Positions 926-49,456 of a stretch of DNA of 64,000 bases are shown here, piece after piece. Made by a program: the position numbers and the translations under genes. The number at the start of each line of letters is the position of its first letter. Position 1 is the first letter of the stretch. The notes below the pieces were generated by a model, which saw only the letters and a list, made by a program, of their open reading frames with translations, did not search any database and was not told where the DNA came from. The DNA comes from a virus: positions 42,511 to 106,510 of the IMG/VR virus record IMGVR_UViG_3300036760_001167. The stretch is one strand, 5' to 3'.

Positions 926-1021
926 ATTATCGGCAGCCGTGCCCCCGCAGCGTACCGGCCGAAGGGCCCGAGATCGCCTGGGCGTCGGCCTAGGCCGGAG
1001 GTCTAGTGTGGCGCGTACTAG
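926..1021 (-). promoter_or_regulatory. Conserved promoter cassette (-10 GATAAT with upstream CCTAGG and CTAGT-N9-ACTAG palindrome)
   Basis: ATTATCGGC recurs at 46483, 49190 and 51988. GGTCTAGTGTGGCGCRTACTAG is shared with 46557-46578. Confidence 0.65.
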
Positions 1022-2796
1022 ATCCTGATGCGCTGGCCCGGCTTCTTGGGCGCGGGCTTCTTCGCGCGGCGCCGCTCGTCGGCCTCGCGGCGGAGCCGGC
1101 GCGCGTAGGACTCCTGCGGCTCCGCGGGCTTCGGCTTCCGCTCGGGCCGCGGCGGCGCGGGCTGCTCCGCGGGCTCCGGCTGCGCGTCCTCGCCGGGCTT
1201 CGGGTCCGTCTCGCGCGCGTACGCGCTCCTCTTCTTGGGCTTCGCGCCCGCGGCGATCGCGTCGCCGCGCGCCTCCCACGACAGCGCGCCGGCCGCGGCG
1301 GCGTCGATCTTGTTCGGGGACATCGGCGCCTCCTTCGAGATCGTCCAGAGCTGCCGGCCCTCGTCGTCGTACGAGGCGATCGGCTTCCTCCGCGTGTTCT
1401 CGACGTGCCGCGCCATCACCTCGTCGCCGTCGTGCGTGACGTCGCCGGCCTTGATCGACGCGGCGTACTTGCGGACCATGATCGCGGCCTGCTTCGGCCG
1501 GGACATCAGCCACGCGACCACGACCTTGTCGCCGTACTTCCCCTGCCACCTGTCGAGCAGCGCCTCGATGTTCGCGTACTGCGAGCCGGGGTCGACGTAG
1601 ACGCGCCAGACCGACCAGGTCTCCATCGCCTCGGAGAGCGTGCCGTCGACCTCGTCGAAGTCGTGCTCGTAGTCGTCGTTCGCGGTCTCCGGCTTGGTCC
1701 AGATCCCGAGCGGCCACTGCCAGCCCGAGTCGACCTCGGTGGCGACCATCGCGAGCGCGTCCTCGTAGCGGGCGCCGTCGACGCCGACCGTGACCAGCGA
1801 GCCGGGCTTCGGCTGCTCCCGCTCCCTCTTGAGCTTGCGCCAGCGCTCCCCGTCGAACGCGCGGTCCTCGCCGGGCACCACGCGGTTGAGGAAGTAGCGC
1901 TCCGCCTGCGCGAGCTCGCCGCGCTTGAGGAGGTCGTCGATCTCGGACGAGATCCGCTCGGTGTCGACCCACCAGCTCGAGCCGTACAGGTTCCTGAGGA
2001 CGCGCATGCGCTCGCGCTTGTTCTTGATGGAGCCGCGGCCGCCCTTGCCCATCATCCTGAAGACGCCGACGCCGGACTCGTGGGTCGCCTGCGCGACGCT
2101 CTGCTCGCTCGGGTCCCACGCGTTGCCGGTCTCGAGGAAGCGGCCGCCCATGCCGGCCAGGTTGCGGCGCTGCGTGTCGGCGAGCTTGCGGCCGCCGTTG
2201 CGCTTGGTCCAGTCGTGCGCCTCGTCCTCGACCGCGAACGTGATCCGCTGCCCGAGCCGGCTCCGGGCGCTCGCGGTGACGGGCTCGATCTTGCCGCCGT
2301 TCGGGAGGTTGATCCTGGTCTCCCCGGTGTCCGGGATCTCCGCCTTGAGGTTGCCGAGCTCGATCATCGGCACCAGCGATCGCCAGACGTTGGCCGTCTG
2401 GTCCTCCGAGACCGCCGTGACCTGGATCCACGGCGTCGCCCACGGCCGGCCGACCGGCTCGCCGTCCGCGTCCCACCCGTCGAACAGCACGGGGCCGAAG
2501 GACTCGACGATGATCATGGCCGCGGCGAAGGGCCCCTTGCCGAGCTTCTGCGGCTCGACGATCTGGCCGCCGCGGTTGTAGCGGAACGCGCCGCTCGGCT
2601 TGGTCAGGTCCTTGACCGCGTCCGGCTTCAGCTCGTAGAAGTTGAGGACGAACTCCTGCTGCCAGTCCGACAGCAGGAACGGCTCGCCCGCGAACTCGCC
2701 GTCGGGGATGACGCACAGGTCCTGGATCGCGTCGAGCACTGCCCACCCGAGCGTCGGCAGCTCGCCCTCCGTGCGCGGCCCGCGCCAGCCCGTCAC
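1018..2796 (-). CDS. terL: Terminase large subunit
   Basis: TLGW N-terminus, Walker A PQKLGKGP, Walker B EDEAH, nuclease motifs GVDG and KIDAA; 592 aa. Confidence 0.93.
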   Translation of the reverse strand: MTGWRGPRTEGELPTLGWAVLDAIQDLCVIPDGEFAGEPFLLSDWQQEFVLNFYELKPDAVKDLTKPSGAFRYNRGGQIVEPQKLGKGPFAAAMIIVESFGPVLFDGWDADGEPVGRPWATPWIQVTAVSEDQTANVWRSLVPMIELGNLKAEIPDTGETRINLPNGGKIEPVTASARSRLGQRITFAVEDEAHDWTKRNGGRKLADTQRRNLAGMGGRFLETGNAWDPSEQSVAQATHESGVGVFRMMGKGGRGSIKNKRERMRVLRNLYGSSWWVDTERISSEIDDLLKRGELAQAERYFLNRVVPGEDRAFDGERWRKLKREREQPKPGSLVTVGVDGARYEDALAMVATEVDSGWQWPLGIWTKPETANDDYEHDFDEVDGTLSEAMETWSVWRVYVDPGSQYANIEALLDRWQGKYGDKVVVAWLMSRPKQAAIMVRKYAASIKAGDVTHDGDEVMARHVENTRRKPIASYDDEGRQLWTISKEAPMSPNKIDAAAAGALSWEARGDAIAAGAKPKKRSAYARETDPKPGEDAQPEPAEQPAPPRPERKPKPAEPQESYARRLRREADERRRAKKPAPKKPGQRIRI

Positions 2797-3236
2797 AGCC
2801 GGCCCACCCGCTCGAGCTCGTCCTTGGCGGCGAGCACCCTCTTCGCCTGCTCCTCGGACCCGCCCTCGTGGTCGGGGTGCGCGGCCTTGATCGCGGCCCT
2901 GAACGCAGCCCGCGCGTCCTCCACCGACGCGTCGGGGCCGATCCCGAGCACCCGGAGGGCCGCCTCGAGCTTCTGGTTGGCGAAGTTGAACCCGCTGACC
3001 CGCCCGAAGCCCTCCGCGGCGTCGGCCCTGTCCTGCGCCTCCGTCCGCCCGCGCTCGTCGCCGACGAAGACCCGCTCGCCGCGCGCGTAGGCGTCGCGCT
3101 GCTCAGCCCGCATGCGCGTGTGGGGCCCGGGGAAGTGCCAGTCCCGGCAGTCGCCGCACCAGGGGATCTCGGTCTTGGTCCCGTAGCGCTCGTTGAAGAT
3201 GTCGGCCGCGCTGCGCTTCGCCGGGCGTCCGCTCAC
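2793..3236 (-). CDS. J-domain (DnaJ-like) protein with N-terminal CxxC
   Basis: ALRVLGI...ARAAFRAAIKAAHPDHEGG with HPD motif. GTGA-coupled to both terS and terL. Confidence 0.8.
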   Translation of the reverse strand: MSGRPAKRSAADIFNERYGTKTEIPWCGDCRDWHFPGPHTRMRAEQRDAYARGERVFVGDERGRTEAQDRADAAEGFGRVSGFNFANQKLEAALRVLGIGPDASVEDARAAFRAAIKAAHPDHEGGSEEQAKRVLAAKDELERVGRL

Positions 3237-3667
3237 GACTGCACCCTCGGGACGTGGACCCGCGCCGGGCCCTTCGCCCTCGGCGCCGGCTCCTCCTCCT
3301 CCTCGATCGGCTCGTCCGTCTCCCAGCGCAGCTTCATCATCGCCATGGGCGTGAGGCCCAGCCGGTCCTCGAGCTGGCGCGCCTCGGCGCGGAGCTGCGG
3401 GTTCGCGTTCGACTGCTCGGACTCGACCAGGATCCGGACGTAGCGCGCGACCACCCGCACCCAGCCCAGCCGCTCCCACTCGCTCGCCTGGGGCGTCGCC
3501 CAGAGCTCCGACCAGACCGTCGCCTCCTCGATCGCCCCGATCAGTGGCTCGTCCAGCGGGAACGCGGGCGGCGGGCCCTTCCGGCCCTCGTACGGGAGCT
3601 GCCTGAACCCCGCGGTCGCCCTCCGGCGCCGGGTGAGCTCCGGGTCCTTCTTCGGGGGTCCGGGCAT
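3233..3667 (-). CDS. terS: Terminase small subunit
   Basis: Actinophage-type motifs MPGPPKK, WSELWATPQASEW, AEARQLEDRLGLTP; upstream of terL. Confidence 0.85.
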   Translation of the reverse strand: MPGPPKKDPELTRRRRATAGFRQLPYEGRKGPPPAFPLDEPLIGAIEEATVWSELWATPQASEWERLGWVRVVARYVRILVESEQSNANPQLRAEARQLEDRLGLTPMAMMKLRWETDEPIEEEEEPAPRAKGPARVHVPRVQS

Positions 3668-3670
3668 CGG

Positions 3671-3970
3671 TCACAGCACCTCCCGGAGCCGGTCCGCGAT
3701 GTGCTGCGCCGTCGGGTCGCCCGCCGCCGCCTGCGCCCGCAGGATCGGCTCCGCCATGCGGAGGAGCTCCCTCGCCCGGCGCGCCTTGCGGACCTCGTCC
3801 CAGCGCTTGTGCTGCGTCGCGCTGATCTTGCCGGCGCGGTCGAGCGGCGCCGGCCGATCGCCCGAGCCTGAGCTCGCCGGCGGGTGATCCTCGGCCTGGC
3901 CATCCTGGGCTAGGTCGACCGGCCTAGGCTGCGCGCGGCCGGCCTGGCGCTGCCTGCGGGACCGTCCCAT
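3671..3970 (-). CDS. Hypothetical protein, probable leaderless first gene of packaging operon
   Basis: ATG lies 6 nt after GTAAGAT -10-like element (3983-3977). Confidence 0.5.
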   Translation of the reverse strand: MGRSRRQRQAGRAQPRPVDLAQDGQAEDHPPASSGSGDRPAPLDRAGKISATQHKRWDEVRKARRARELLRMAEPILRAQAAAGDPTAQHIADRLREVL

Positions 3971-3974
3971 GTAG

Positions 3975-4520
3975 CTATCTTACACCGAGTAACTCCCGGC
4001 CGGATCCCGTTCACAGGGGCTCGGGCCTACTACGCCGGTCGGTCGGTGAAAGACAGGTCTTTGCCAAGCCCCGCCCTCCATTCGGACGGTGACCTTCACC
4101 CAAGGACCTAGGCCGCGGCCTCAGCGACTACAGACCTAGGTCCTATCAGGCCGCGCATCGGACCTAGAAGACGTAGCTCAACGTGACGCCCGCCCGATGT
4201 GACTAGACCGATATGGCCACGGGCCCTGTGGCCTAGGGCGGCCGATCGGGCCGGCACGATCGGGCAGCCTAGGCCGTGTTGCGATCCGCGATCGCCCAAG
4301 GGCCTAGGCCGTCGACGCCCTGCGCGACGATCGGGCGGCCTACGCCCGGCGAGATCGAAGGGCCTAGGCCGCTCCCGTCTCTGGCGACTTTCCGCAGGCT
4401 AGGCCTTGCGGTCTTGCGGCGAGATCGAAGGGCCTAGGCCGGCGACTTTCGGGCCGGCGACTTCCGGCCTGTTAGGCCCGGCGACTTTCCGGCCGATAGC
4501 TGGCGACTTTCCGGGACCAT
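3975..4520. repeat. Candidate genome-end/packaging (cos-like) region with short repeats
   Basis: Lies between HNH/MTase and terS. Five GGCGACTT copies at 4383-4510, GCGAGATCGAAGGGCCTAGGCC twice, and about a dozen CTAG in 3900-4440. Confidence 0.55.
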
Positions 4521-5024
4521 GACCTGCCAGCGCCCGGGCAGCGGCTCCGGGTCGCCTGGCCGCATCACGACGATCGCGGGCGCGAACGGCGCCTGCACAC
4601 GCCCGCCGTCGAAGCGGATCCGGCCGCGGACCAGCCTCACCTCCGAGCCCGCGCAGCTCGCCTGCCACCACCGCGTCTCGGTGCGCGCGGGGAGCAGGCA
4701 GACGACCACGATCCCGCCGCGCGCCTCGAGCCTCGCGCGCGCGACGAAGTCCGGGGTGTGCTTGGAGTAGGGCGGGTTCAGGAAGGCGGCCTGCCCGCGC
4801 CTGGCCCAGCGGCCCGGCGAGAGCGCGTCGGCCATGAAGCCGCCGGGCCCGATCCACCGGGCGGCCTTGTGGTTGGCCTCGTTCGCGGCCGCGTCTACGG
4901 CGAAGCGGAACTCCCGGTCCAGCTCGTCGTAGAGCTCCCGCGGGGTCCCGTAGTCCGTCTTAGCCGCGGCGGTCGCCGGGTTCGCCCCGCCGAACGTCGT
5001 CGCGCTACCCCGGCCTCCTGCCAC
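4434..5024 (-). CDS. Phage DNA N6-adenine methyltransferase (Dam-like, PF05869-type)
   Basis: YGTP...LDREFRFAVDAAA, FLNPPYS, LLPARTETRWW, GRIRF. Confidence 0.88.
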   Translation of the reverse strand: MAGGRGSATTFGGANPATAAAKTDYGTPRELYDELDREFRFAVDAAANEANHKAARWIGPGGFMADALSPGRWARRGQAAFLNPPYSKHTPDFVARARLEARGGIVVVCLLPARTETRWWQASCAGSEVRLVRGRIRFDGGRVQAPFAPAIVVMRPGDPEPLPGRWQVMVPESRQLSAGKSPGLTGRKSPARKSPA

Positions 5025-5391
5025 CCAGCACCTCCTTGGCCGTCTTCTCGGAGTGCGACCTCTTGCAGCGCCCCTCCACGGACTCGCGCGCGAACGGGTC
5101 GCCGCCCTCGGCGAGGATCTGCCGCAGCGGCGGCGTGTGGTCCAGGTCCGTCCACGGCGACCTGCAGCCGCACAGGCAGAACGGCTGCTCTCGCCTGACC
5201 CTCCGCCGAAGCGCCCGCCAGCGCGGCGAGTCGTAGACCCAGCGCCAGTCCGCGGACCGGCCCTTGTACCGCGAGTCCTGGGCGGCGTTGCGCTCCGCCT
5301 CGTGCTTCGGGCAGCGCTCCGTCCCGCCGGGAACCAGCTCCGGGCACCCGTCCTCGGCGCATACGTGCTGCCTGCGGCTCGCCCGGCTCAC
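5005..5391 (-). CDS. Terminase-associated HNH endonuclease
   Basis: C..DGCPELV...RCPKH, YDSPRWRALR, DLDH, CKRSHSEKT. Confidence 0.85.
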   Translation of the reverse strand: MSRASRRQHVCAEDGCPELVPGGTERCPKHEAERNAAQDSRYKGRSADWRWVYDSPRWRALRRRVRREQPFCLCGCRSPWTDLDHTPPLRQILAEGGDPFARESVEGRCKRSHSEKTAKEVLGGRRPG

Positions 5392-5606
5392 GTGATCATC
5401 GCCTTGGCCGCGCACGCGACGCAGAGCTCGCCGAGCCCCGGGTCGTGCTTGAGGTACGTCCCGAGCGGCATCGTGCCCGCGAACGCGGGGATCCCCCACC
5501 TGCCGCAGAGGGCGAACCAGACCCCGCGCGCGGCGCTCTGCTTGATGTGGCGCGGCCCGCCGTCCTCGATCATGAACGTCACCGCGGGTCTCCGCTCCGC
5601 GGTCAC
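5388..5606 (-). CDS. Small Cys/His hypothetical protein
   Basis: Coupled starts/stops, phage codon bias, ALCG...CVAC. Confidence 0.55.
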   Translation of the reverse strand: MTAERRPAVTFMIEDGGPRHIKQSAARGVWFALCGRWGIPAFAGTMPLGTYLKHDPGLGELCVACAAKAMIT

Positions 5607-5825
5607 CGGTCGACCCCCGCCCAAGCTGCCCAGATGAGGGCGCACCCGACGGCGAACACCCCGACGCACAGCACCGCGAGGAGCATCATCGGTCGAGCAT
5701 CCTGACCAGCCCCTCGCGCGCGAGCCGGCGCGCCTCGTCGACGGGCAGCGCGATCCACAGCGCGCGGTGCCGGCCCAGCTTCCACGAGACCGTGACGTAC
5801 CGGCGGCCGCAGTTCGGGCAGGTCC

Positions 5826-5972
5826 TCACGCGCGCCCGCAGTCGCAGCAGCCCTGCCGCGCGTGGACCGCGCAGTCGCCGCTCGTCGTGTGAGGGCCGGA
5901 GTTGTGCGCCGCGCAGTAGAGCCGCGACAGGCACGGGCACTCGGCGCAGGCGCAGTCCCCGCCGTCGCTCAC
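5826..5972 (-). CDS. 48-aa Cys-rich peptide
   Basis: 9 Cys and 3 His; GTGA-coupled on both sides. Confidence 0.5.
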   Translation of the reverse strand: MSDGGDCACAECPCLSRLYCAAHNSGPHTTSGDCAVHARQGCCDCGRA

Positions 5973-6871
5973 GGGCGAAGCACCGCCACGCACCAGCGGC
6001 CCGCGTGGACGTAGACCGTCGCCTTGACGCCGAACTGGCCGCTGTACCGCTCGCTCCAGAGCGGCCGCATCCGCGAGTGGTCGCGCAGCGCGAGGCCCCA
6101 GCCCAGGACGCGGAACCACCCCTCGCGATCGCCCCTGTACCAGCGGCCCGATAGCATCCGTGCAGTCGTCATCCCGGGTAGCTTCCCTCGCGCGCCGCGC
6201 AGCGCCTGCACGTGGCCGGGCTGGTGGTCGGGACGCCGCGGCCTCCGAGCCAGCGGCCCGGGTCGACCTCGCTGGTCCAGAAGGGCACGCCGCAGAGCGT
6301 GACCCACCGCGCGAGCGTCGACTCGCGGCGCACGTGGACCTTCCCCGTCCAGAGCTCTACCCTCACGCCGGCCTCCACTGCCTCGCCGCGAGCTCGGCCG
6401 CGGCCTTGTCGTACGCCTCGTTCAGCGTCGTCCCCCGGCGCTCCACGCCGCGGCCGCCGCACACCCAGCAGCTCCAGACGCCGGCCTCGTCGGACCACTC
6501 CACGCCGCAGGCGGGGCAGCAGAGCGTTGCCACGCGCTCACCTCCACCAGCAGCAGTCGCACCAGCGGGCCCGGCACCCGCACCGCGCGAGGCCGGCCGC
6601 GTGCCGGAGCCTGGACAGCAGGTGCCGCGCGCGCCTCGCGCGCGAGGAGCCGATCGCCCGGACCTCCCGCGCGTCCCGCAGCCCGTGGTACCGGCGGCCG
6701 GTCACGCGAGCCTCGCCTTCGCCGCGAGGTACTCCAGCGCCCCCGGCGCGTCCTCGCCGTACTCCTCGCGGAACAGCCCGGCGAGCAGGACCAGCGAGAA
6801 CCCGCCCGCTCCCGGCGACTCCCACAGGCGCACGAGCCGGCGGTCGCGGCGGCGGGCTAGCAGGCGGCGGA

Positions 6872-7210
6872 TCACTGGGCACGCGCCGATCGCGCGGTTC
6901 GGTCGCGGTGGTACGCGTCCATCTTCGCCTGGACCGTCGCCGGGTCGCCGTGAAGGAACTCGGCGAGGCCGACCGGCTCGAGCGCGTCGGCGCGCAGGCC
7001 GCGCGCGAGCTCCGCGAGCTCCTGCGCGTACCGGAACCCGAGCTGCGCGAGCGTCAAGGCGCCGAGCTTCGCGCGGAGCGAGGCGACCTCGGTCTTCGTC
7101 GTCTTGAGCGAGGTCCCGCGGCGGTCCGCGACCTCCCGCATGCGCATCCCCGCGCAGAGCATGCGCGCCACCTCGTGCTCCGAGCGGGAGATCGGGCCGA
7201 ACGTGCTCAC
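6872..7210 (-). CDS. LuxR/GerE-type HTH protein
   Basis: ISRSEHEVARMLCAGMRMREVADRRGTSLKTTKTEVASLRAKLG. Confidence 0.8.
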   Translation of the reverse strand: MSTFGPISRSEHEVARMLCAGMRMREVADRRGTSLKTTKTEVASLRAKLGALTLAQLGFRYAQELAELARGLRADALEPVGLAEFLHGDPATVQAKMDAYHRDRTARSARAQ

Positions 7211-7516
7211 CTCTTCCCCCGCCACATCTCGGCGAGCACGCGGAGGAACAGCGCCATGGAGATCAGCACCAGGCCGACCGCGCCGACGTGCTCCAAGTGC
7301 AGGAACTGAAGGACGTCCTGGTGCGTCATCGTCAGACCTCCTCCATGTCCAGCCGGAGCCGCGCGATCGCCGCCTGCTCGTTCGACATCTCGCTCGCGTC
7401 GCGCGCCGCGAGGAAGGACCCGATGTCCGCCTCGAGCTGCAGGACGCGGCGCTCGCACGCGCGGGCCCGGATCCTGCAGAGGACCAGCCTCTGCACGAGC
7501 GCGGCCTTGGGCGAGA

Positions 7517-8170
7517 TCATGCGGACGCCAGCCGCGCGGGCCGGAGCGCGTCGGCCGCGCGCCGCGGCGCCCTGCGGAGCCACGCGCGCAGCCTGTGCGG
7601 CCACGTCCTGAGCCTGACGACCGCGAACGCCTCGGGCCTGTAGACCGAGACGGCCGCCTGCTGCTGGACCCTGATCGCGGTCAGCGGCCTGGCGAAGAAC
7701 TCGTCGCCGACCGACTCGCCGACGTCGACCGCGGGCGTGCCCTGGAGCCAGAGCTGGGCGGCCTGCCCGAACGCGCCCACGACCGCCTGGTCGCCGCGCG
7801 TCCTGGCCGTGCCCACCGCGAGCTGGGTCCGGCGCTCGACGCGGCGGGCGCAGCGTCGGATGGCCCGCTCGTTGGTCTCCAGCGGCCGGACGCGGCGGCG
7901 CTCGGCGCCGGAGTCCTCGATCCTGCGCGCGACGAAGCCGCCCAGCGCGTTCTGGAACAGCGGCAGCGCGCGGGCCTGCACGTACGCCGTGACCGCCGGC
8001 CCGTCACCGGCCATGTCCGCCGTGATCGGCAGGAGCATCGCGACCCGCTCCACGTCCGTGTCCACGACGTCGAAGTCGAACTCGCCGCCGCGCCTCTTCC
8101 GCTCGGCGATGTACCTGACCCTGTTCGACCTGACCTCGCCGACCGCCACCATCTCCTGGATGCCGCTCAT
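7517..8170 (-). CDS. Internally deleted HK97-fold major-capsid-protein homolog (mini-capsid)
   Basis: Collinear matches to recalled HK97 gp5 motifs, including C-terminal AVVGAFGQAAQLW...DEF...AIRVQQQAAVSVYRPEAF. Confidence 0.75.
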   Translation of the reverse strand: MSGIQEMVAVGEVRSNRVRYIAERKRRGGEFDFDVVDTDVERVAMLLPITADMAGDGPAVTAYVQARALPLFQNALGGFVARRIEDSGAERRRVRPLETNERAIRRCARRVERRTQLAVGTARTRGDQAVVGAFGQAAQLWLQGTPAVDVGESVGDEFFARPLTAIRVQQQAAVSVYRPEAFAVVRLRTWPHRLRAWLRRAPRRAADALRPARLASA

Positions 8171-8333
8171 CGTGCCCCCTTCGCCTCGAGCTCCGCGATC
8201 TCCAGCATGAGCCGCGCGAGCGCGTCCCTGTCCCCGCCGGCCGCCTTGCACGTGTCGCAGCCCGCCTCGTGCTCGGGCGTGCCCTCGCGCGAGAGCGCGA
8301 CGGACGCGATCGACTCCATCAGCAGGAACGGGT

Positions 8334-8534
8334 TCACTCGCCCGCCGCCCACGCCGCGGCCAGCTGGGCCAGCGTCCTCGCGCCCGCCTTGCGCATCGCG
8401 CAGCCGGCCTGGTACTTGACGGTCTTGTCCGACGTCCCCCGCTCCTCCGCGATCTCCGCGTACCGCTTGCCGTCGCAGAGCGCGCGGACGACCTCCTCCT
8501 CCGCCCGCGTCAGGCCCCAGTCCTCGCGGCTCAC
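8334..8534 (-). CDS. Stand-alone LuxR-type HTH protein
   Basis: LTRAEEEVVRALCDGKRYAEIAEERGTSDKTVKYQAGCAMRKAG. Confidence 0.82.
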   Translation of the reverse strand: MSREDWGLTRAEEEVVRALCDGKRYAEIAEERGTSDKTVKYQAGCAMRKAGARTLAQLAAAWAAGE

Positions 8535-9043
8535 CGCGGCACCACCCTCAGCCGCAGCCGCGCCCGCCTGGCCGGCTCGCACGGGCCGTCGCAGTGGTAC
8601 ACGCCGGGCGCGACCACCATCAGCGACCACCTCGAGCGGCACTGCCAGCAGCGGACGCCCCTCTCGGTCCGCCACCCGCCCTCGAACTCGCTGGCGGCAA
8701 GCCCGCCGAACCGCACGGCCCTCACCCCGCCCTCGCCGTCCGGCCCTCGCCGTTCCAGGCGACGGCCATCTCCCTGTGGCCGCAGCCGCAGCAGACGCGG
8801 AACAGCGCGCCGACGGTCAGCCCGAGCAGCGTCCGGCGGAGACACATGCAGTGCTCGTGCCTCACGCGACCCGCTCGAGCTCGACCCAGCTCCGGGTGTT
8901 CATCTCGCCCAGCGCCGGGTGGCTGGTGAAGACGTGCTCGAGCGTCTCGACCGCCGTGTGCGTCGGCACCGCGTGGTCGTAGAACGGCGAGCGCCGCTCC
9001 TGGCCGTTCTCCTTGCGGCACACGTAGACGTTCCACACGTGCC

Positions 9044-9502
9044 TCACGTCACCCGCGGCCACGCGTCCGGCGGCTCGGGCGCGTCCGCGAAGTCGACGAT
9101 CACGAGCGCGGCTCGGAGCGGACCCTCGTCGTAGACCTTGGTCCCGTCCGGCTCGGTCCTGCTGGGGTAGGCCTGCCCGACGATCGCCACGTCCTCCGGC
9201 GTCCGCGCGGGCTCGCCCGCCTCGTCCGCGAGGTACGAGACCCTCACGGTCCCGCCGCCCAGCAGCTCGATGCGCTGGATCAGCCCGCGCTCCGAGATCC
9301 CCGCCGCGAGCGTCCAGCCGTTGAGCTCGTCGTGCTGCTCCGGCGCGAGCCGCTGCCAGTCTCCCTCGTTCGCGTCCAGAGCGCGGACGCGCTCGCCGCT
9401 CGCGGGGTCGGGCACGTGCGTCCCGTCCTCCGCGGTGGTCCAGCCGGCGATCGGCCTCCCCGGGTCCGTCACGTCCGTCACCTCGATGTGAACCCCGTCC
9501 AT
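9044..9502 (-). CDS. Hypothetical protein
   Basis: GGGAGG RBS, GTAAGAT promoter at 9538-9532, strong codon bias. Confidence 0.7.
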   Translation of the reverse strand: MDGVHIEVTDVTDPGRPIAGWTTAEDGTHVPDPASGERVRALDANEGDWQRLAPEQHDELNGWTLAAGISERGLIQRIELLGGGTVRVSYLADEAGEPARTPEDVAIVGQAYPSRTEPDGTKVYDEGPLRAALVIVDFADAPEPPDAWPRVT

Positions 9503-9952
9503 GGCTGCCTCCCTTGCCCTCGTCCTTCCCTATCTTACGGCGTGCGACCTTGGTCCGGGGCCACCGGCTCGGGCATCGGCGACCTCCACCACAGCGTCAC
9601 CGTCCCCTCCCCGCGGTCGTACGTGGCGAGGACGCGCTGGTCGACGGGCTCCTCGCCGAGCGTCGCGCGCCAGCCCTCCTGCCGGGCCCGCGCGCGGCCC
9701 GCCTCCGTCGCGGCGACGGCGTCGGCCTGCGTGCGCACGCCCTCCATCATCGCCCACGGGACGACCTCGCGCCTCGTCTGCGGGTCGCGGCGGCGGCCCA
9801 GCCCGCGCCTCACCGACACCCCGGATCGGCGGCGGTACCGGCGCGGAGGGGATGGACTTCCGGGCGCGCAGAACTCGCGGCCTTGTGCGCGTATATAACC
9901 ATCCTCTTAGAACTGGTACCTTCTGGGGTATCCGCCTTCTCGGGCTGCGGGT

Positions 9953-12442
9953 TCACCGGGTCCGCGCCTGGTCCGCGCCGGTACTTCCGGTACTTCCGGG
10001 GATGCGGACGACGAAGAGCTTCGTCGTGACGAGGCCCCGGCCCTGCACCCAGACCTTCCGCTTCCTGGTGTCGCGACCCCGGTCGTGCGACAGCACGCCC
10101 TGCTCAGCCCACTTGTCGAGCACGGGCTTCGGGTCGCGCAGCCCCGCGTACTCGCGGAGGATCAGCGCGAGCGTCGACCGGCCGATGATCCCCACCGTGT
10201 CGTCGCCGAACCAGACGCCCCAGCGCTGCTGGCCGATCGGCTCCTCGTTCGCGGGGAAGAACCGGCCGCTGCCGAGCAGCGCCTCCTTCACCGCGTTGAG
10301 CCCGCGCTCGCCGATGTCGGCGCCCTCGTCCGCGCCGGACCTCTGCAGCTTCTCGAACACCGAGAGCGCCGCCCCCTCGAGCTCGCCGTACTCCACGCCG
10401 CGGCCGCAGACCCGCGCGAGCTGCGCGAAGCCCGCGACGCACGTCGCGACCTGCCCGGCCTGCGCGAGCTCGACCTGCTGGCCGCTGGCCTCTGGCGCCA
10501 TCTCGAGGAAGAGCCGCTTCTGGAGCGCGAGGAACTCGGCCGGCCGCGGGTCGCGCGCCAGCCACCGCAGCGGCCAGCCGTGCGCCCGCTGCGCCGACGC
10601 GAGCATCCGCAGGTGGGCGTCGACGTCGTCGGCGAGCGGCGAGTACAGCTCCATGATCCTGCGGCGCACGCCCGTCAGGCCGGACTGGATCGTCAGCCGC
10701 GCCTCGCCGGTCGACAGCACGCACGCGCTCCAGGTCGAGGTGCCGGACACGTTCCGGCCCGCGTTCCCCGCGATCTTCCGCTCGCGCCCCTCCATCAGGT
10801 TGAACAGCATCTGGGTGAACTGGTCCGGCTCGAGGCCGAGGTTCGCGGCCTCGTCGAACCAGACGGGCAGGACGCCGACCTGCTTGAGCACGTTCCCCGG
10901 CGCCTTCGCGGTCTGGTTCCACGAGCGGTAGAGCCGCCCGTCGGGGCGGCGCGCGTCGCCGAGCTGCTGGAACGCCATCTCCGCCGACTCGGACTTCCCG
11001 GTGTGCGACTCGCCGGTCACGTGGACCGTGAAGATCTGCTTGTCCTTCAGCAGCGTGACGTAGAGCGCGCCGAGCGGGAAGCCCAGCAGGACCGCGAGCT
11101 TCGGCCAGCCCGCGGCCTCGTCGACGACGTTCCTCCACTCGCGGCGCGCGTCGTCCTCCGCGACGTCGGCCGCGTCGCCGTAGACGACGAGCTCCTCCTT
11201 GCCCGGCGACGCCTCGAGCTCGCCCGGCACGCGCAGCTCGCCGCCGCGCCACTCCGCGCGCGTCAGCACTGGCCTCGTGCGGAACAGGCCCGACGCGCGG
11301 ACCGCCGACAGGAACTCCGCGACCGCGGCGCACTCGGCGGGCATCAGGTCCGGCCCCTCGAGCTCGGACAGGAGCTGCCCGCGCTTGTCCGCGGTCATGA
11401 ACGTCGACGGGACGACCATCCGCTTGGGCGCCGGGCCCGCTCCCTCGAAGGTCACGTCGTAGCCGCGCACCTGGCCGTCCTCGTCGACGAGCACCTCGTG
11501 CGGGACCACGTTGAACTGGGCGCGCGCGATCCACCTCTTGTCGCGCCTCTGCGAGAGCCAGCCGGAGCGGAACGCCCAGCCGAGCGAGTCGGTGTCGGGC
11601 GGGCGATCGGCGGCGGCGCGCCTCCGCGCGGGCCTCGCGCCGTCGGCCTCGAGGACCAGCGCCCTCAGCTCTGCGGCGGTCCCGCCGCGGTCGAGCCAGT
11701 CCGACACGTCCTCGCCGCGCGACTCCCGCTCCTCGAGGCCCGGCAGGTCGACGGCGACCGCGTGCACCCCGCGCGACGCGAGCGCGTCCATCGCCGCGGC
11801 CCGCGCCCGCTTGCCGTGCGCGTCGTAGTCGCGCAGCACGGCGACCCTGAACCCCTCGAGCTTCCTGGCCAGCTTCGCGGTCAGGTGCCCCTCCGACGGG
11901 GCCGTCGCCTGCAGCCCCTCGGCGCGCAGCCTGTCGACGTCCTTCTCGCCCTCGACGACGAGGACCCAGCGGTCCTTCTCGAGCGGCGGCATGTAGAGCA
12001 GCGGCCCCGGCTTGCGCGGCCTCCACCGGAAGTCCTTGCGCCAGCCGTCGGGCCACTCGTAGCGGACCTTGGTCGCGCCCTCGTACTCGTAGCGCGCGAC
12101 CTCGACCGCGCCCGCGTCCTCGGGCCGCACGCCGCCGCCGGGGTTGCGCGTCCGCCACAGCCGCCCGGCCTCGCGCGGCGGCGGCGCGGACCCGAACGCC
12201 TCGAAGATCGCGTCGACGTGCTCGCGGTCGCGCTCGCCGCCCGCGTCGAGGCCGCAGCCGCCCTTCCCGCTGAAGCAGTACAGCAGCGCCTCGCCCTCCC
12301 GCGATCGCTTCACCGCGAACGACGGGCTGTTCGAGCCGTCCCCTTCGCACACGGGGCAGAACGTGCGGAAGGAGCCGGCGCCCGACGGGAACGTCGGCCA
12401 GCCCCGGCCCTCGAGGAGCTCGAGCAGCTCGTCGTACGTCAA
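9953..12442 (-). CDS. DNA primase-helicase (Zn finger + TOPRIM + DUF927-like ATPase)
   Basis: CPVC; VVEGEKDVD and DYD TOPRIM motifs; GESHTGKS Walker A; LPVWFDE Walker B. Confidence 0.85.
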   Translation of the reverse strand: MTYDELLELLEGRGWPTFPSGAGSFRTFCPVCEGDGSNSPSFAVKRSREGEALLYCFSGKGGCGLDAGGERDREHVDAIFEAFGSAPPPREAGRLWRTRNPGGGVRPEDAGAVEVARYEYEGATKVRYEWPDGWRKDFRWRPRKPGPLLYMPPLEKDRWVLVVEGEKDVDRLRAEGLQATAPSEGHLTAKLARKLEGFRVAVLRDYDAHGKRARAAAMDALASRGVHAVAVDLPGLEERESRGEDVSDWLDRGGTAAELRALVLEADGARPARRRAAADRPPDTDSLGWAFRSGWLSQRRDKRWIARAQFNVVPHEVLVDEDGQVRGYDVTFEGAGPAPKRMVVPSTFMTADKRGQLLSELEGPDLMPAECAAVAEFLSAVRASGLFRTRPVLTRAEWRGGELRVPGELEASPGKEELVVYGDAADVAEDDARREWRNVVDEAAGWPKLAVLLGFPLGALYVTLLKDKQIFTVHVTGESHTGKSESAEMAFQQLGDARRPDGRLYRSWNQTAKAPGNVLKQVGVLPVWFDEAANLGLEPDQFTQMLFNLMEGRERKIAGNAGRNVSGTSTWSACVLSTGEARLTIQSGLTGVRRRIMELYSPLADDVDAHLRMLASAQRAHGWPLRWLARDPRPAEFLALQKRLFLEMAPEASGQQVELAQAGQVATCVAGFAQLARVCGRGVEYGELEGAALSVFEKLQRSGADEGADIGERGLNAVKEALLGSGRFFPANEEPIGQQRWGVWFGDDTVGIIGRSTLALILREYAGLRDPKPVLDKWAEQGVLSHDRGRDTRKRKVWVQGRGLVTTKLFVVRIPGSTGSTGADQARTR

Positions 12443-12921
12443 GCCGTGGCCCCGATCGGTCGGAGCAGGTCGAGGAAGAAGTCCGCGTGCCGGGGAGCGA
12501 AGAACTCGCGGCCGTGCGCCGGGAGGATCCCGGCGCGGCGCGCCTCGTCGAGCAGGAACCGCTCGAGGGCGCGTGGGTCAGGCACCCACTCCGCGTACAG
12601 AACCTCCTGGCGCTCGCGCTCCGACGACGAGTACGCGGCGAGCCTGCTCCGCATGGAAATCGTCCTGCCAACCTTCACCCACTCTGCGAAGTCGACGACG
12701 TAGACGAAGCCGCCGCCCTCGTAGGTGGGGCGGAGCCAGACCGAGAACCCGAGTCCAGCCGCGGCCAGCCGCCTGACCTCCGCGACCCCGAGCCGCTGTA
12801 CCGCGCCGTAGTGCCCGCCACTCGAGCAGTAGGAGTCGGCCCCCCTCGCAGTTACCGCATCCTGGCAGCCGAGAATGGAGCAGACCCTGTTGGTCGGCTC
12901 TCGCCTCCGCGCTCCGTTCAC
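12439..12921 (-). CDS. GIY-YIG superfamily (T5orf172-like) nuclease
   Basis: GFVYVV...VKVGRT...RL...LERFL...GREFF. Confidence 0.7.
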   Translation of the reverse strand: MNGARRREPTNRVCSILGCQDAVTARGADSYCSSGGHYGAVQRLGVAEVRRLAAAGLGFSVWLRPTYEGGGFVYVVDFAEWVKVGRTISMRSRLAAYSSSERERQEVLYAEWVPDPRALERFLLDEARRAGILPAHGREFFAPRHADFFLDLLRPIGATA

Positions 12922-13676
12922 CGGGTCGTAGGTGCGACCTGTCGAGGCATGCACCTCCGGCACGGCCGCAGGTTCCTGACCTTGCGCAGCTTCACGCGCT
13001 CCAGGTAGCCCAGCCACCCGCGCCGCGCGGTGAGCGCCGGGCAGAGCGCGTCTCGGTGGAAGACGTCCGTCCCGTCGACCCCGCGGCAGACGACCACTAG
13101 CGAGTCCAGCGTCCGCGGCATCGCCGCCCGCGCCGTCACGAGCGCAGCGCCGCGAGCTCCGTCGCGGCCTCCAGCAGGTCGACGCGCGCCTCGAGCTCCG
13201 CGTGCGGGCTCGTCGACTGCGCCCACGACATGGCGCGGTAGCACAGGCGCTCCATCAGCTGGTAGTCCGGCGACTCCTCCCGGAGCAGCTCGACCGCCGC
13301 CGCCAGGCTCAGCTCAGCCACTCGTTCCTCCCCTCGACCAGGTCGTCCGCGGTCCGGTCTCGCAGCTCGTGGCGGCGGAGCCACCTCGCGAGCCTGCGCT
13401 CCGCGCGCGCCATCCGGCGCTCGAGCCTGCGCGGCTTGAGCACGCGGTCGTCCAGCCAGACGAGGCGCCAGTGCTCGTTGTCCGCGGAGTAGAGCACGAG
13501 GCACGCGCAGTCGATGCCGCCTGGCGGCGAGAACTCGTAGTGCCGCCTGCGCACCTCGCGCTCCCACTTGAGGCCGAGTCCCCGCGCGGCCGGGCCCCGG
13601 CCGACGATGCCGCCGACCGCGAAGCCGTCCTGCGCGCGGTCCTTCAGGCTCCGGTCCGGGGGCGCGCCGTCGCGGG

Positions 13677-14102
13677 TCACGGGTCGATCCCCGCGACGCG
13701 CGCGATCACGGCGGCGTAGCCCGCCATGTCGACGATGGTGTCGCGCTTGACGCCGCCCGTCGCGAACCGCGAGACCTTGAGCAGGAGGAGGCAGCACGCC
13801 GCGTCCTCCGCGGTCAGGACGACCTCGTGGGGCAGGACGCCCGCGCCGTGCAGGTACGTCGTCCACAGCGCCGCGATGTTCTCGCAGCTCGGCCGCGGCC
13901 CGCCGTAGTCCGCCTCCCGGTCGCCGCCGTAGACCAGCGCCCCGGCCTCCTCGAGCACCGTCGGCGCGGGCGCCAGGTTCAGCGCCCGCGGCTCCTCGTC
14001 GCGCTCCGCGGTCAGCGGCTCCTCCGGCATGCTCTGGTAGTGGCGGCCTCGGTGCCTCTCCCTCCCGCGTGCCGCGCACTCCGGGACGTCGCATAGCGCC
14101 AT
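13677..14102 (-). CDS. DUF6378-like protein (predicted nucleotide-pool associated)
   Basis: VLEEAGALVYGGDREADYG...IAALWTTYL...LLKVSR...DTIVDMAGYAA. Confidence 0.7.
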   Translation of the reverse strand: MALCDVPECAARGRERHRGRHYQSMPEEPLTAERDEEPRALNLAPAPTVLEEAGALVYGGDREADYGGPRPSCENIAALWTTYLHGAGVLPHEVVLTAEDAACCLLLLKVSRFATGGVKRDTIVDMAGYAAVIARVAGIDP

Positions 14103-14478
14103 GTCGTTCTCCCTTCGCCTCTCGCCCATCACCATCGACTCGACCCACGCCGCGAGCGCCGCCCTGTCTGCCGCGCTCGCGGCGGCGCCGTCGCGCCAGC
14201 AGCGCAGGATCAGCGCCGCCTCGTCCGGGTGGCGGCGCAGGTACGCCTCGACCTTCGCCAGCCCCGCCGCTCCGGGCCCCTCGTTGCTCAGTCTCCCCGC
14301 CGCCTGACTACGCGCCGGACGTTCGCCGTCGGGACGATGACCTCGTCGCCCTCGGAGCGCATGATCGGGAAGTACGTGATCCGCGTCGGCCAGATCGTCA
14401 GCAGCTCCGGGCGGCGCTCCACCCTGCCGTCCATGTACTCGATGCTGCCGTACGCGTAGACCGGCTGCTCCTCCTCCA

Positions 14479-18984: not shown

Positions 18985-19932
18985 TCATCGCTTCTCCAGG
19001 AGTTGGTAGCGCTCAAGCGGGTCGGACTCCTCGAACTCCTCAGCCAGCACGTACTCCACGTCGCTGCCGTCGTCGAAGAGCGGGCAGACAGTAAAGAACT
19101 GGCAGTCCCAGCGGCACGTCGTCGTCGGGTTCGGCGGGACCAGCGAGTGGTGGTCCTCGCCGTCCTCCAGCCGCGCCTCCAGCTCCTGCATCTCGCGGCC
19201 GATCCCGACGAAGTGCTTCCAGTGCGAGCGGAGCTGCTCGCGGTTGTGCTGGACCTCGACGCGCTCGTAGAACGGCGGGTTGGCCCGCGCGGTGCGCTTC
19301 ACCTTGCGCAGCATGTTCAGCACCGCGCCCACGACCTTCGGGTTCTTCACGCCCTTCGCGATCTCCTCCAGCAGGAGGATGAGCTCGTACGTCAGGAGCT
19401 GGCGGTCCATGCGCGCGATCGCCGGCAGGTCGGTGAAGTTGCCCACCGTCTTGTGCTCGAGGATCGCCTTCCACTTGTCGCGCATCACGACGAGCCCGTC
19501 CATCTTCGCGCGCAGCGTGATCTCCGCGCGCCACAACACGCCCTCGTCGGCGGGCGCGAGCACGACCTCCGCCTCGCGCTCCGGCTCGACGGCCGCGAGC
19601 TGGTAGTCCTTGCCCGTCTCCTCGAGGTCGGCGAGGTAGCCCTCGACCATGATCGACGCGAGGTCCTCGTCTTTGTAGATCTCCTCCGCGTGGTCCGGGT
19701 GCAGCGCCGCCATCGCCTCCGCGAACTCGCGCACGTGCGCCGCCGGGTCCTCGAGCCGGCCCGCGTACCACTCGGCGAGCGCGTCGTGGACCATGTTCCC
19801 GACGTCGCTCGGCGAGTTGTACTCCGCGGGCCTGGCGAGGCGGCGGACGTAGCGCAGCCACCACCGGCGCTTGCACCTCTGGTAGTCCTTCACCGTCGAC
19901 TGGGTCAGGACGAGCGGCTCGCCGACGGTCAC
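18985..19932 (-). CDS. PD-(D/E)XK Cas4/RecB-like exonuclease
   Basis: RCKRRWWLRY, GNMVH, KMDG, EHKT, QLLTY, C-terminal CRWDC...C. Confidence 0.85.
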   Translation of the reverse strand: MTVGEPLVLTQSTVKDYQRCKRRWWLRYVRRLARPAEYNSPSDVGNMVHDALAEWYAGRLEDPAAHVREFAEAMAALHPDHAEEIYKDEDLASIMVEGYLADLEETGKDYQLAAVEPEREAEVVLAPADEGVLWRAEITLRAKMDGLVVMRDKWKAILEHKTVGNFTDLPAIARMDRQLLTYELILLLEEIAKGVKNPKVVGAVLNMLRKVKRTARANPPFYERVEVQHNREQLRSHWKHFVGIGREMQELEARLEDGEDHHSLVPPNPTTTCRWDCQFFTVCPLFDDGSDVEYVLAEEFEESDPLERYQLLEKR

Positions 19933-22982: not shown

Positions 22983-24989
22983 TCACGCCGGTGCCGGGGC
23001 GACCTCGCAGGCGTCGGTGGTGCAGTAGAGCTCCTCGGACTCCGCGCCGTCGTGCCCGCGCAGCGCGCCCCATCGTACCGGCCGGAGCGCCTCGGTGCGC
23101 GCCCTGAAGTCCTCGCGGCTCGACGGCTCGACCGGCATCTGCGCGTAGACGCCCTCGCGGTCTGGCATCAGCGACATCGACTTGACGAGCGGCGCGAACA
23201 GCGAGAGCACGTTCCCCACGTGCTTCGCCTCGTCCGGCTGGAAGGTCAGCGTGTTCGACACGGCGTTGTCCGCCCAGCACCTCTGGAGCATCGCGACGAT
23301 GGCGGCCTGCTCGTACAGCGGGACGCGCTTGACCGACCGCGTGCGGCCGGCGCCGTAGGAGAGCGGGAACGAGAAGACCGCGGTGTCCGGCGTCGCGACG
23401 TCGGGCTCCCACGGCACGCCCGACTCGCGGAGCAGCTCCGCGACCTGCGACTGGTCTCCCATCCGCACGCGGCGGACTACGTACGCGTCCAGCGGGAAGT
23501 GCATCCCCGCCGACACGCCGGCGAGCAGCGACACCGTCCCGGAGGGCTTCACCGTGGTCACGCGCACCGACTCCGCGACGCCCGCCTCCGCGGCGAGCCG
23601 GCGGTTCTCCGCGCGCACGGCGTCGTAGCCGCGGTTCAGCGCGCCGAACACGGTCGAGACCGAGGTCGCGTCCAGCCAGTCCGCGACGCCCGAGACCGAG
23701 ACGCCGATCCGCCGGTTCCTGCTCGTCACCGCGTTGGTCGCGGCCGAGTGGGAGCGCAGCAGCGCGACGGTCGACGCGTAGAACGTCGCGAGCTCGAAGA
23801 TTCGCGGGAGGTCCTCCGGGCAGTGGGTCGGGAAGACCTCGACCAGGTTGCAGAGCTCCATCGACTCGAGCGGGATCTCGCCGCACGGGTTGACCGCGAC
23901 CGCGCGGTCCGGCATGCGGTCGCCGGTCCGGCCGTACTTGCGGATGTTGAGCATGTTGACGATGCCGGGCTCTCCGTTGTCCCGCACGCGGTCCGCGAGC
24001 GCGCCGAGCGCGTCGAAGTCCGCGCTCTCGCGGAGCGCCACGGAGTTGTTGGACAGCCCGCCGATCTCGAGCCGCTCCGGGTACAGGTCGTAGTTCTTGA
24101 GGTTGAGGAACTCCTCGTCGTGCGGCGAGCCGACCGCGAGCTCGGCCGACCTGCGGATGTTGCCGGCGACGACGCAGCGGCCGATCTCGTTCATCACGTC
24201 CGCGATCGTCCGCGTGCTCGACGCCTTCCCGCTCGCCGCGCGCCACAGGTGGGAGCGCAGCCTCTCGTGGAGCTCGACGAGCGGCGCCCTCCCGGCGGAG
24301 ATCCCGCCGAACCCCCGGAGCGGCGCGCCGGCCGGCCTGATCGCGGAGTAGTCGAACTCGACGGGCCTGCCACCGCGCTCGTACGTGCGGACCAGCAGCC
24401 GCACCGACTCGGCCCAGCCCTCGCGCGAGTCCGGGACGCGGAAGACCTCCGGGTCCGACGCCGAGGGCATGGCGAAGCGCAGCGCGGCGGTGTGCGTGGT
24501 GAAGCCGACGCCGACCCCGCACATCAGCGAGTCCATCAGCCAGTGCGCCGCGTCGGCCAGCGAGTCCGTCACCTCGACGGCACCGCAGTTGTTCAGCGCG
24601 TGCGAGCCGCGGTCGTAGACGTAGTCCGTCCCCATCACCCAGAGGCCGCGGCCCGGCGGCAGCAGCTTCATGTCGAACACCGCGCCGGCGAGCTCCTCCG
24701 CGAGCGCGTCCATGCGCGCCGCGTCCCACCTGCGGCCGACCACGTTGACGAGCCAGTCCTTCCTGATCGACAGGACTCCCTCGACGACGCGGGCCACCGT
24801 GTCGGCCCAGCCCTCCTGCCCGCCGCCCTCCATCTGGCGGGAGTAGGTGCGGTAGTAGACGGCCTCCGAGAGACCGCCGAACCCCCACCTGACCGGCCTC
24901 CCCCTGAGCTCCTCGACGACGTGCTTCGGCAGGTGGTAGCGGGCTTCGACGATCACTGGCGCGGCTCCTTCACAGACGGATGTGCCCAT
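22983..24989 (-). CDS. nrdJ: Class II (AdoCbl-dependent) ribonucleotide reductase
   Basis: LPPGRGLW, LNNC, VVAGNIRRSAE, NPCGEI, VKPSGTVS, C-terminal CTTDAC. Confidence 0.93.
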   Translation of the reverse strand: MGTSVCEGAAPVIVEARYHLPKHVVEELRGRPVRWGFGGLSEAVYYRTYSRQMEGGGQEGWADTVARVVEGVLSIRKDWLVNVVGRRWDAARMDALAEELAGAVFDMKLLPPGRGLWVMGTDYVYDRGSHALNNCGAVEVTDSLADAAHWLMDSLMCGVGVGFTTHTAALRFAMPSASDPEVFRVPDSREGWAESVRLLVRTYERGGRPVEFDYSAIRPAGAPLRGFGGISAGRAPLVELHERLRSHLWRAASGKASSTRTIADVMNEIGRCVVAGNIRRSAELAVGSPHDEEFLNLKNYDLYPERLEIGGLSNNSVALRESADFDALGALADRVRDNGEPGIVNMLNIRKYGRTGDRMPDRAVAVNPCGEIPLESMELCNLVEVFPTHCPEDLPRIFELATFYASTVALLRSHSAATNAVTSRNRRIGVSVSGVADWLDATSVSTVFGALNRGYDAVRAENRRLAAEAGVAESVRVTTVKPSGTVSLLAGVSAGMHFPLDAYVVRRVRMGDQSQVAELLRESGVPWEPDVATPDTAVFSFPLSYGAGRTRSVKRVPLYEQAAIVAMLQRCWADNAVSNTLTFQPDEAKHVGNVLSLFAPLVKSMSLMPDREGVYAQMPVEPSSREDFRARTEALRPVRWGALRGHDGAESEELYCTTDACEVAPAPA

Positions 24990-46482: not shown

Positions 46483-46578
46483 ATTATCGGCCCCGGCGGC
46501 CGATCGCCGCACCGGACCAAGGGCCGGAGTCGGCCCGCGGGCCGCCCTAGGCCGCAGGTCTAGTGTGGCGCATACTAG
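46483..46578 (-). promoter_or_regulatory. Conserved promoter cassette upstream of amidoligase
   Basis: GCCGATAAT plus CTAGTGTGGCGCATACTAG, as at 926-1021. Confidence 0.65.
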
Positions 46579-49183: not shown

Positions 49184-49456
49184 GCTTCTATTATCGGCTG
49201 CGCGGGCCCTCCGGCGTACCGCCCGGAAGGCTGGTGTCTCGCAGGGGGCGGCCTAGGTCGAAGGGCCCGGGGAAGGTAAGGTTTCCTTACCTTCTCGCGC
49301 GAGGGTCTACGCTGCCGGGCCTGACCGCGGCGGAGCGCGGCGCGTGCGGGCCGACGCCCGCGCCTCTGTCGCTCGGCCTGTGCCAGTGCGGCGCGCCGCG
49401 CTGCCCGCAGCGCGGGTCGGAGCACTGGTCGCCGAGCGCCTCGCGCGGCGCACCGC

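Follow-up and report, generated by a model that had tools for sequence, protein, structure and literature searches.

A rare family of miniature HK97-fold capsid-protein paralogues with inverted charge, found in an uncultured sediment phage

Introduction

No viral shell fold is more widespread than that of HK97. In HK97 itself, assembly requires the delta domain of the major capsid protein (MCP; gp5), the N-arm, E-loop and A-domain form capsomer and lattice contacts, and E153 and R210 make a salt bridge within the capsomer. MCP paralogues with structural roles also exist, such as the vertex proteins of the T4 gp24 type (PDB 1YUE, 5VF3), which have the complete fold, are encoded in the head module and build pentons. 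To our knowledge, the derivatives of the fold comprise shells (phage capsids, encapsulins and gene transfer agents), the satellite-borne hijacker Ccm and encapsulins made of an A-domain only. Ccm, a capsid-protein homologue encoded by the satellite SaPIbov5, forms pentamers and redirects the assembly of the helper capsid; it is of full length, with delta domain, N-arm, E-loop and complete A-domain, takes pentamer positions and alone forms no capsids (PMC8569155). The Family 4 or 'A-domain' encapsulins (PF08967/DUF1884) consist of the A-domain only, in about 100 aa, and are cellular proteins (Euryarchaeota, Bacteroidetes) encoded beside enzymes (PMC8346489). Here, we analyze a 217-aa protein, P0001, encoded in a 64,000-nucleotide stretch (the window) corresponding to bases 42511-106510 of the 106,510-bp virus record IMGVR_UViG_3300036760_001167 (G000), the genome of an uncultured sediment phage. 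This protein, hereafter the mini-MCP, is homologous to HK97-type MCPs, has lost the elements that form the lattice and carries an inverted charge.

A short gene homologous to HK97-type major capsid proteins

The virus record has terminal repeats, is rated complete and encodes its own terminase, portal and MCP, and contigs from two sediment-metagenome studies contain the same phage, without any difference over positions 6800-9600. The genome has a GC content of 72% and, in the window, the minus strand carries nearly all genes, including the one of interest:

7517..8170 (stop codon 7517-7519; record G000 50027-50680), minus strand: mini-MCP gene, P0001, 217 aa, supported by the GC content at third codon positions (GC3), hhalign and AlphaFold2 (AF2)
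8175..8181, minus strand: ribosome-binding-site-like AAGGGGG, 4 nt 5' of the P0001 ATG, read from the sequence

This open reading frame (ORF) is a real gene. Indeed, its GC content at codon positions 1, 2 and 3 (0.73/0.54/0.98) is that of the bona fide genes of the genome, and the ORFs overlapping it in other frames are devoid of such a pattern. Moreover, ATGA overlaps link it to both neighboring ORFs: its ATG (8170-8168) shares bases with the TGA of the 56-aa ORF upstream (ATGA at 8167-8170), and its TGA (7519-7517) with the ATG of the 62-aa ORF downstream (ATGA at 7517-7520).

Regarding its ancestry, P0001 is a true homologue of HK97-type MCPs. It matches PHROG_10 'major head protein' (E 1.7e-6), the solved MCPs 9osb and 9lbm (E about 1e-4, single-sequence search) and, by residues 127-185 alone, Pfam PF05065 (Phage_capsid; E 2.4e-4, 21.0 bits, under the cut-off of 24.2). 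The MCP of the phage itself (P0003, 406 aa, record G000 23214-24434), located outside the window, aligns with it by BLASTP in two stretches, P0001 130-187 with MCP 347-403 (41% identity, E 1e-10) and P0001 16-72 with MCP 186-242 (31% identity, E 4e-7). When a profile of the mini-MCP family described below was aligned by hhalign with a profile of 76 MCPs, a probability of 100 and an E value of 4.4e-42 over 189 columns were obtained, P0001 residues 3-189 being paired with residues 161-405 of the phage's own MCP and the whole fold core being covered. A structural model points to the same fold: the AF2 model computed from a 120-row alignment (pLDDT, the predicted local distance difference test, 92; pTM, the predicted template modelling score, 0.84) was used, the one from a 2-sequence alignment being unusable (pLDDT 46). 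In Foldseek, HK97 prohead II ranks first (E 7.5e-14, template modelling score, TM, 0.65-0.70), and with VIA-align the model superposes on 3qpr_G with a Z score of 17.9 and a root-mean-square deviation of 3.6 over 186 residues, model residues 1-189 lying on gp5 131-383. The ESM Atlas model of the exact P0001 protein, built from the single sequence, matches MCP clusters as well (TM 0.54-0.57).

Elements kept and lost

Residue and span counts were taken from one alignment with 89 full-length MCPs and 15 minis, and the HK97 numbering was checked on the K169Y mutant entry 2fs3 and on the full-length chain 3qpr. From its N- to its C-terminus, P0001 is organized as follows:

8021..8170, minus strand, aa 1-50: first core strands, E-loop stub (hairpin 17-25/31-39, turn KRRGG) and P-domain strand; holds E23, the E153 equivalent
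7913..8020, minus strand, aa 51-86: conserved ED-PA turn and spine helix; R67 is the R210 equivalent
7760..7912, minus strand, aa 87-137: A-domain stub, net charge +8, motif RxRP(W/L)ETNxRAIxRA (helix alpha5 equivalent)
7613..7759, minus strand, aa 138-186: long C-terminal P-domain strands (VGAF...YRPEAF); P162, Q169 and Q171 at the N356, E363 and R365 positions
7520..7612, minus strand, aa 187-217: family-specific Arg/Trp-rich amphipathic tail (RTWPHRLRAWLRR...), net charge +8; modelled helix 192-208, at lower confidence

Ahead of the core, 3 residues are left in P0001, against 161 in the phage's own MCP and a median of 159 in the 89 MCPs, the delta domain and the N-arm being gone. Residues 1-50 correspond to gp5 131 to about 190, less about 13 residues of the distal E-loop, the K169 equivalent among them; the E-loop is thus a short hairpin (residues 17-39), with a Y..F span of 14 residues versus 27. 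The A-domain spans 45 residues versus 91: helix alpha5 and the hinge strands are kept, and about 45 axial-half residues are missing, with which helix alpha6 and the loops at the axis have disappeared. At the position of K169, a lysine is found in 85/89 MCPs, the phage's own included, and in 1/15 minis, the residue being absent from P0001. The N356 equivalent is an asparagine in 78/89 MCPs and in the own MCP, in 3/15 minis, and P162 in P0001, and the R365 equivalent, an arginine in all 89 MCPs (own MCP included), persists in 4/15 minis and is Q171 in P0001. For E363, the glutamate present in 85/89 MCPs and in the own MCP is kept in most minis and is replaced by Q169 in P0001. The E153 and R210 equivalents are retained by most minis.

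Since the delta domain, the N-arm and parts of the E-loop and A-domain on which HK97 assembly depends are lost, P0001 would be unable to build a shell or to be cross-linked into one, which would make the mini-MCP a non-structural protein. A place in the virion as a specialized subunit, cement or inner-surface protein present in few copies is quite improbable: structural MCP paralogues do exist, the retained P-domain could fit lattice contacts and a basic inner face could touch DNA, but neither the N-arm nor the axial A-domain loops nor the cross-link residues are available for a lattice position, and the gene has non-structural neighbors, a distance of 26 kb separating it from the head module.

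The earlier note on this DNA, made from the letters alone, had described a miniaturized HK97-fold capsid protein, encoded by an intact ORF with a ribosome-binding site and ATGA coupling, and on these points it was right, as it was in the HK97 gp5 strings that it cited. Its claim that the deletions remove lattice-forming elements is likewise borne out: delta domain and N-arm are missing, as are the distal part of the E-loop, to which the K169 equivalent belongs, and the A-domain's axial half, and other residues stand at the N356 and E363 positions. It overstated two of the losses: the E-loop, said to be lacking, is much shortened and survives as a hairpin, and the A-domain, said to be mostly absent, has lost about half of its residues and keeps the other half, including helix alpha5.

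Charge inversion and gained elements

The isoelectric point (pI) of the minis ranges from 9.5 to 11.4, with one member at 6.9, versus a median of 5.1 for MCPs and 4.7 for the phage's own MCP; P0001 has a pI of 11.4 and a net charge of +13, and the family is basic whatever the GC content. This inversion is local, affecting the stub of the A-domain and the tail alone; P-domain and E-loop remain MCP-like. Indeed, the stub has an average charge of +5.5 in minis versus -2.0 in MCPs (+8 in P0001 versus -7 in the own MCP), and the new C-terminal tail contributes about +7. The stub bears a motif specific to the mini family, RxRPWETNxRAIxRA, and the tail reads R(T/D)WPxRLRxxxR, continues with further Arg/Trp-rich sequence and folds as an amphipathic helix in the AF2 model; conserved arginines in the basic stub and tail are R95, R102, R106, R188, R193 and R195. 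The tail motif is found on no other protein of this phage genome, and the idea of a docking peptide common to other phage proteins was therefore rejected.

A rare and conserved protein family

In a word-indexed protein search, P0002 (61% identity) was the sole relative whose length is similar, and the same type of search with the family profile, in which 8000 candidates were scored, gave almost no matches. An exhaustive HMMER search, with a two-sequence profile against 1.84 billion representatives, gave 434 matches, the best of which are short proteins of 144-258 aa matching over their full length; the remaining ones are MCPs of roughly 400 aa, each matching in two stretches. The short proteins form about 18-20 sequence clusters with 26-63% identity, shared boundaries and shared motifs, and 14 of 16 family members match PF05065 (E<=0.01, best 1.7e-10) and no other Pfam family. 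Judged by these sequences, mini-MCPs make up a rare and conserved family of paralogues of HK97-fold capsid proteins, some 200 aa long, in which the P-domain, the spine helix, an E-loop stub and half of the A-domain persist and from which the delta/scaffolding domain, the N-arm, the distal E-loop and the other, axial A-domain half have been lost, and the recurrence of the same cut-down architecture with conserved motifs in their protein pattern points to purifying selection.

In a tree built on the shared columns, 18 minis form one group (Shimodaira-Hasegawa-like approximate likelihood ratio test, SH-aLRT, 98), to which the phage's own MCP is not sister. Two further members, P0076 and P0091, fell among MCPs in this quick tree; as a tree in which the 20 minis stay together has a log-likelihood better by 76.7 units (p-AU, approximately unbiased test, 0.98), a single origin is preferred and a second origin of minis is not supported. 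P0076 (213 aa) and P0091 (218 aa) are metagenomic proteins about 41% identical to the own MCP, with the same N-terminal boundary and short E-loop as the other minis; they have no C-terminal tail and carry instead an Arg/Trp-rich basic insert (KLKRRWRRWHRLKH and RKWFRKKRAWAKAAH, respectively) within the A-domain. Three other members, P0015, P0024 and P0053, look like intermediate forms because they retain about 25 extra A-domain residues.

All members of the family are metagenomic, on contigs of up to 80.6 kb (P0156; 4.7 kb for P0002, 47 kb for P0154 and 58.9 kb for P0024), with 1-5 sequences per cluster. No family member was found in scans of the IMG/VR, JGI metagenome contig and GTDB species genome collections, in which two motif matches (L032 and L033) proved to be chance matches. 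Against the isolated phages of INPHARED, tblastn gave no match with P0001 and weak matches to genuine MCPs only with P0024, and megablast of the mini-MCP region gave no match. In a fold search of BFVD, the top 50 matches were full-length MCPs or declared fragments throughout, none of about 200 aa. As a literature search found no description of such proteins either, the mini-MCP family is apparently undescribed so far.

With such a GC-rich genome, a neutral remnant of a duplicated capsid gene, left open by chance, has to be considered, long spurious ORFs being common at 72% GC and the Pfam score of P0001 lying under the gathering threshold. It is very improbable, since a GC3 of 0.98 with 0.54 at second positions and translational coupling at both ends speak against it, as do the diverged relatives that keep boundaries, new motifs and a coherent charge change, and their grouping in one clade that is not sister to the own MCP. 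Random truncation and neutral decay among homologues, which the earlier note had named as the pattern that would undo its proposal, were not seen: the same architecture and conserved motifs recur across the relatives. Nor did the other outcome that it had named, a lack of significant profile or structure matches to HK97-fold capsids, occur.

Gene neighborhood

The mini-MCP gene belongs to a translationally coupled block of 11 genes, running from window position 9502 down to 6702, and lies upstream of the terminase genes:

8334..8534, minus strand: 66-aa GerE/LuxR-type (sigma-70 region 4-like) helix-turn-helix (HTH) protein; PF00196 E 2.5e-7, PHROG_3282 'sigma factor' E 4.3e-6
8167..8337, minus strand: 56-aa ORF coupled 5' of the mini-MCP gene, no family match
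7332..7520, minus strand: 62-aa ORF coupled 3' of the mini-MCP gene, no family match
6872..7210, minus strand: 112-aa protein with a weak GerE/LuxR HTH match; PF00196 E 7.7e-5, just under the cut-off
3233-3667, minus strand: small terminase subunit (TerS); Pfam Terminase_7 E 2.8e-7, PHROG_226 labelled 'minor tail protein'
2793-3236, minus strand: 147-aa protein between TerS and TerL; weak J-domain match, E 1.2e-4, under the cut-off
1018-2796, minus strand: large terminase subunit (TerL); no Pfam family, PHROG_19179 E 3e-79

The other genes of the block encode small proteins without matches. On its 5' side, a DUF927/Toprim primase-helicase is encoded (9953-12442), near which the replication region also holds genes for a T5orf172-domain protein (12439-12921), a DUF6378 protein (13677-14135) and a PD-(D/E)XK nuclease (18985-19932), all on the minus strand. 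On its 3' side, genes for an HNH endonuclease and a Dam methylase are followed by a 464-nt gap, a 99-aa gene, TerS, the J-domain-like protein and TerL. TerL is separated from the head genes by small genes, over about 11 kb, and by a non-coding stretch of roughly 1 kb. The own MCP gene adjoins head genes of 649 and 727 aa. As the earlier note had it, the mini-MCP gene is outside the structural operon, 26 kb from the own MCP gene and at the end of the non-structural genes, yet TerS and TerL follow 3.5 kb downstream. Gene order alone suggests that the protein would be made from a block preceding the packaging and late genes. The note also supposed a common system with a mosaic 767-aa ORF of the window; no support for this was found, the two genes being 32 kb apart with nothing seen to tie them. 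That ORF (39756-42059, minus strand) has a strong coding signal (GC3 0.97) and no Pfam or PHROG match.

The 464-nt gap contains many GGCCTAGGCC palindromes (region 4105-4440) and ends with TAAGAT-N6-ATG, which resembles a leaderless start. It (window 3970-4440) holds 4 of the 6 GGCCTAGG(C/T)C palindrome sites of the window, with 0.35 expected by chance over the whole window; the palindromes are set in longer repeats, and GGCCTAGGCCCTTCGATCTCGCCG is present twice. The gap is a candidate control region, either an operator array or a late promoter, on which the GerE/LuxR-type proteins encoded nearby may act. The two remaining palindrome sites (987 and 49250) adjoin GCCGATAAT boxes (926-934 and 49190-49198). 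Four exact copies of this box are found, all on the coding strand (926-934, 46483-46491, 49190-49198 and 51988-51996, minus strand); with none between 46.5 kb and 0.9 kb, the mini-MCP block is without a box of its own. A scan of 3500-13000 for promoter and terminator consensus sequences gave nothing useful.

This setting bears on a doubtful but serious alternative, namely that the mini-MCP is a nucleic-acid-binding protein on a capsid-fold scaffold, the basic stub and the Arg-rich helix binding phage DNA or RNA and the HK97 core being a mere frame. Such a protein could possibly regulate the middle-to-late switch, repress translation or assist in packaging or condensation. A net charge of +13 and a pI of 11.4, with the charge concentrated in two adjacent elements bearing conserved arginines, would fit, as would a gene placed between two GerE/LuxR-type HTH genes and near the GGCCTAGGCC palindrome gap and TerS/TerL. 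However, no known nucleic-acid-binding domain or motif was matched, the conserved MCP-like P-domain surface and the E153 and R210 equivalents would be left without explanation, and a neighborhood taken alone is weak evidence.

The position upstream of the late genes also bears on anti-defense. If made before the true MCP, the mini-MCP could occupy or block a sensor of capsid-sensing immunity (STAND, i.e. signal transduction ATPases with numerous domains, of the Avs7/8/10 kind, CapRel or Lit) without triggering it. The HK97 core recognized by such sensors is kept, assembly would not occur, and rare, patchy, fast-diverging accessory families are typical of counter-defense genes. Sensors wrapping the HK97 fold exist, and the Avs7-type grip is mainly on the axial A-domain (10.64898/2026.01.04.697583), that is, on the very surface deleted in the mini-MCP. 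Moreover, what remains of the A-domain has a charge opposite to that of the MCP and is therefore a poor mimic; a literature search found no published capsid-mimic anti-defense protein, and PADLOC gave no match for mini-MCPs and only weak HTH matches for the neighbors. We consider anti-defense unlikely. The earlier note had imagined a decoy for capsid-sensing immunity or a dominant-negative against satellites or superinfecting phages; a faithful decoy fits poorly with the charge inversion, the basic tail and the lost axial A-domain surface.

A tentative function

Three features of this anatomy constrain any function. The MCP-like peripheral half appears to have been kept under selection, the lattice-forming and locking parts are all removed, and the surface that would look towards neighboring A-domains round the capsomer axis has turned from negative to positive, with an Arg/Trp helix added beside it. 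The reading we favor, with a probability of only about 0.35, is that the mini-MCP docks heterotypically onto acidic MCP subunits and modulates or poisons assembly, a function deduced from the anatomy of sequence and model. It would bind side by side to acidic MCP subunits or capsomer edges through its retained MCP-like P-domain, E-loop base and spine helix, the E153 and R210 equivalents being kept. To the negatively charged A-domain of a true MCP it would oppose its own positively charged stub, so that hetero-association would be favored over self-association, and, because the mini-MCP could not continue the lattice, capsid assembly would be capped, delayed or poisoned. The target may be the assembly of the phage itself, with the mini-MCP as a timing or holding factor, or that of a co-infecting relative or satellite. 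As Ccm illustrates, a capsid homologue can be used to redirect assembly (PMC8569155).

Several points weigh against docking onto MCP subunits. The alignment behind the AF2 model held MCPs, and the fine structure of the P0001 model therefore leans to the MCP fold. The predicted complex of the mini-MCP with residues 95-406 of the own MCP scored 0.00, in a run without controls that gives no verdict. The genomic context of the minis is that of this one phage only. Binding to nucleic acids or to membranes would account just as well for a basic patch with an Arg/Trp-rich helix. Finally, poisoning of an MCP of the phage's own type needs a route to spare itself, and none is visible in the phage.

A possible function in conflict between phages can be considered too, and we hold it as tentative. 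The mini-MCP would here be a weapon, a soluble, non-polymerizing look-alike of the MCP made before the late genes, which would either cap the growing shells of rival phages or satellites whose capsid is of the same type or block host receptors that sense capsid protein before its assembly, with a new effector surface formed by the basic stub and the Arg/Trp helix.

A conserved phage family keeping the peripheral half of the HK97 fold, without the lattice parts and with an inverted charge, would mean that this fold has been put to a new use. If mini-MCPs act on capsid assembly, they would represent compact, naturally occurring inhibitors or timers of assembly of the HK97 type; if they act on capsid-sensing immunity, they would constitute a new class of counter-defense. 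With the surfaces kept, lost and gained clearly delineated, the question of their function is directly testable.

Comparison with known systems

With HK97 gp5-type MCPs (PF05065; PDB 3qpr, 8cfa, 1ohg), the mini-MCP has in common the P-domain sheet, the spine helix, the beta-hinge, helix alpha5 and the C-terminal strands. It differs from them by the absence of the delta domain and N-arm, an E-loop reduced to a stub, a halved A-domain and the replacement of the N356, E363 and R365 equivalents, as well as by its inverted charge, its extra Arg/Trp-rich tail and a gene located among non-structural genes. By most of the functional properties that define a capsid protein, P0001 fails to qualify as one. 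Like T4 gp24-type vertex proteins, it is a diverged paralogue that the genome encodes in addition to its MCP; unlike them, it would not be able to build pentons.

Family 4 encapsulins are also conserved, drastically cut derivatives of the HK97 fold with a presumed non-capsid role. Minis differ in that they keep the P-domain and half of the A-domain, are phage-borne and match PF05065 only, and the neighbors of P0001 are small phage proteins and HTH regulators. An encapsulin reading is ruled out by the phage context, the missing assembly elements and the PF05065-only match.

Regarding Ccm, the mini-MCP, known here from its sequence only, is phage-borne and not satellite-borne, is devoid of delta domain and N-arm and has a halved A-domain. 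The likeness is that both are diverged MCP homologues encoded apart from the head module, the role of Ccm being to act on the assembly of the true MCP.

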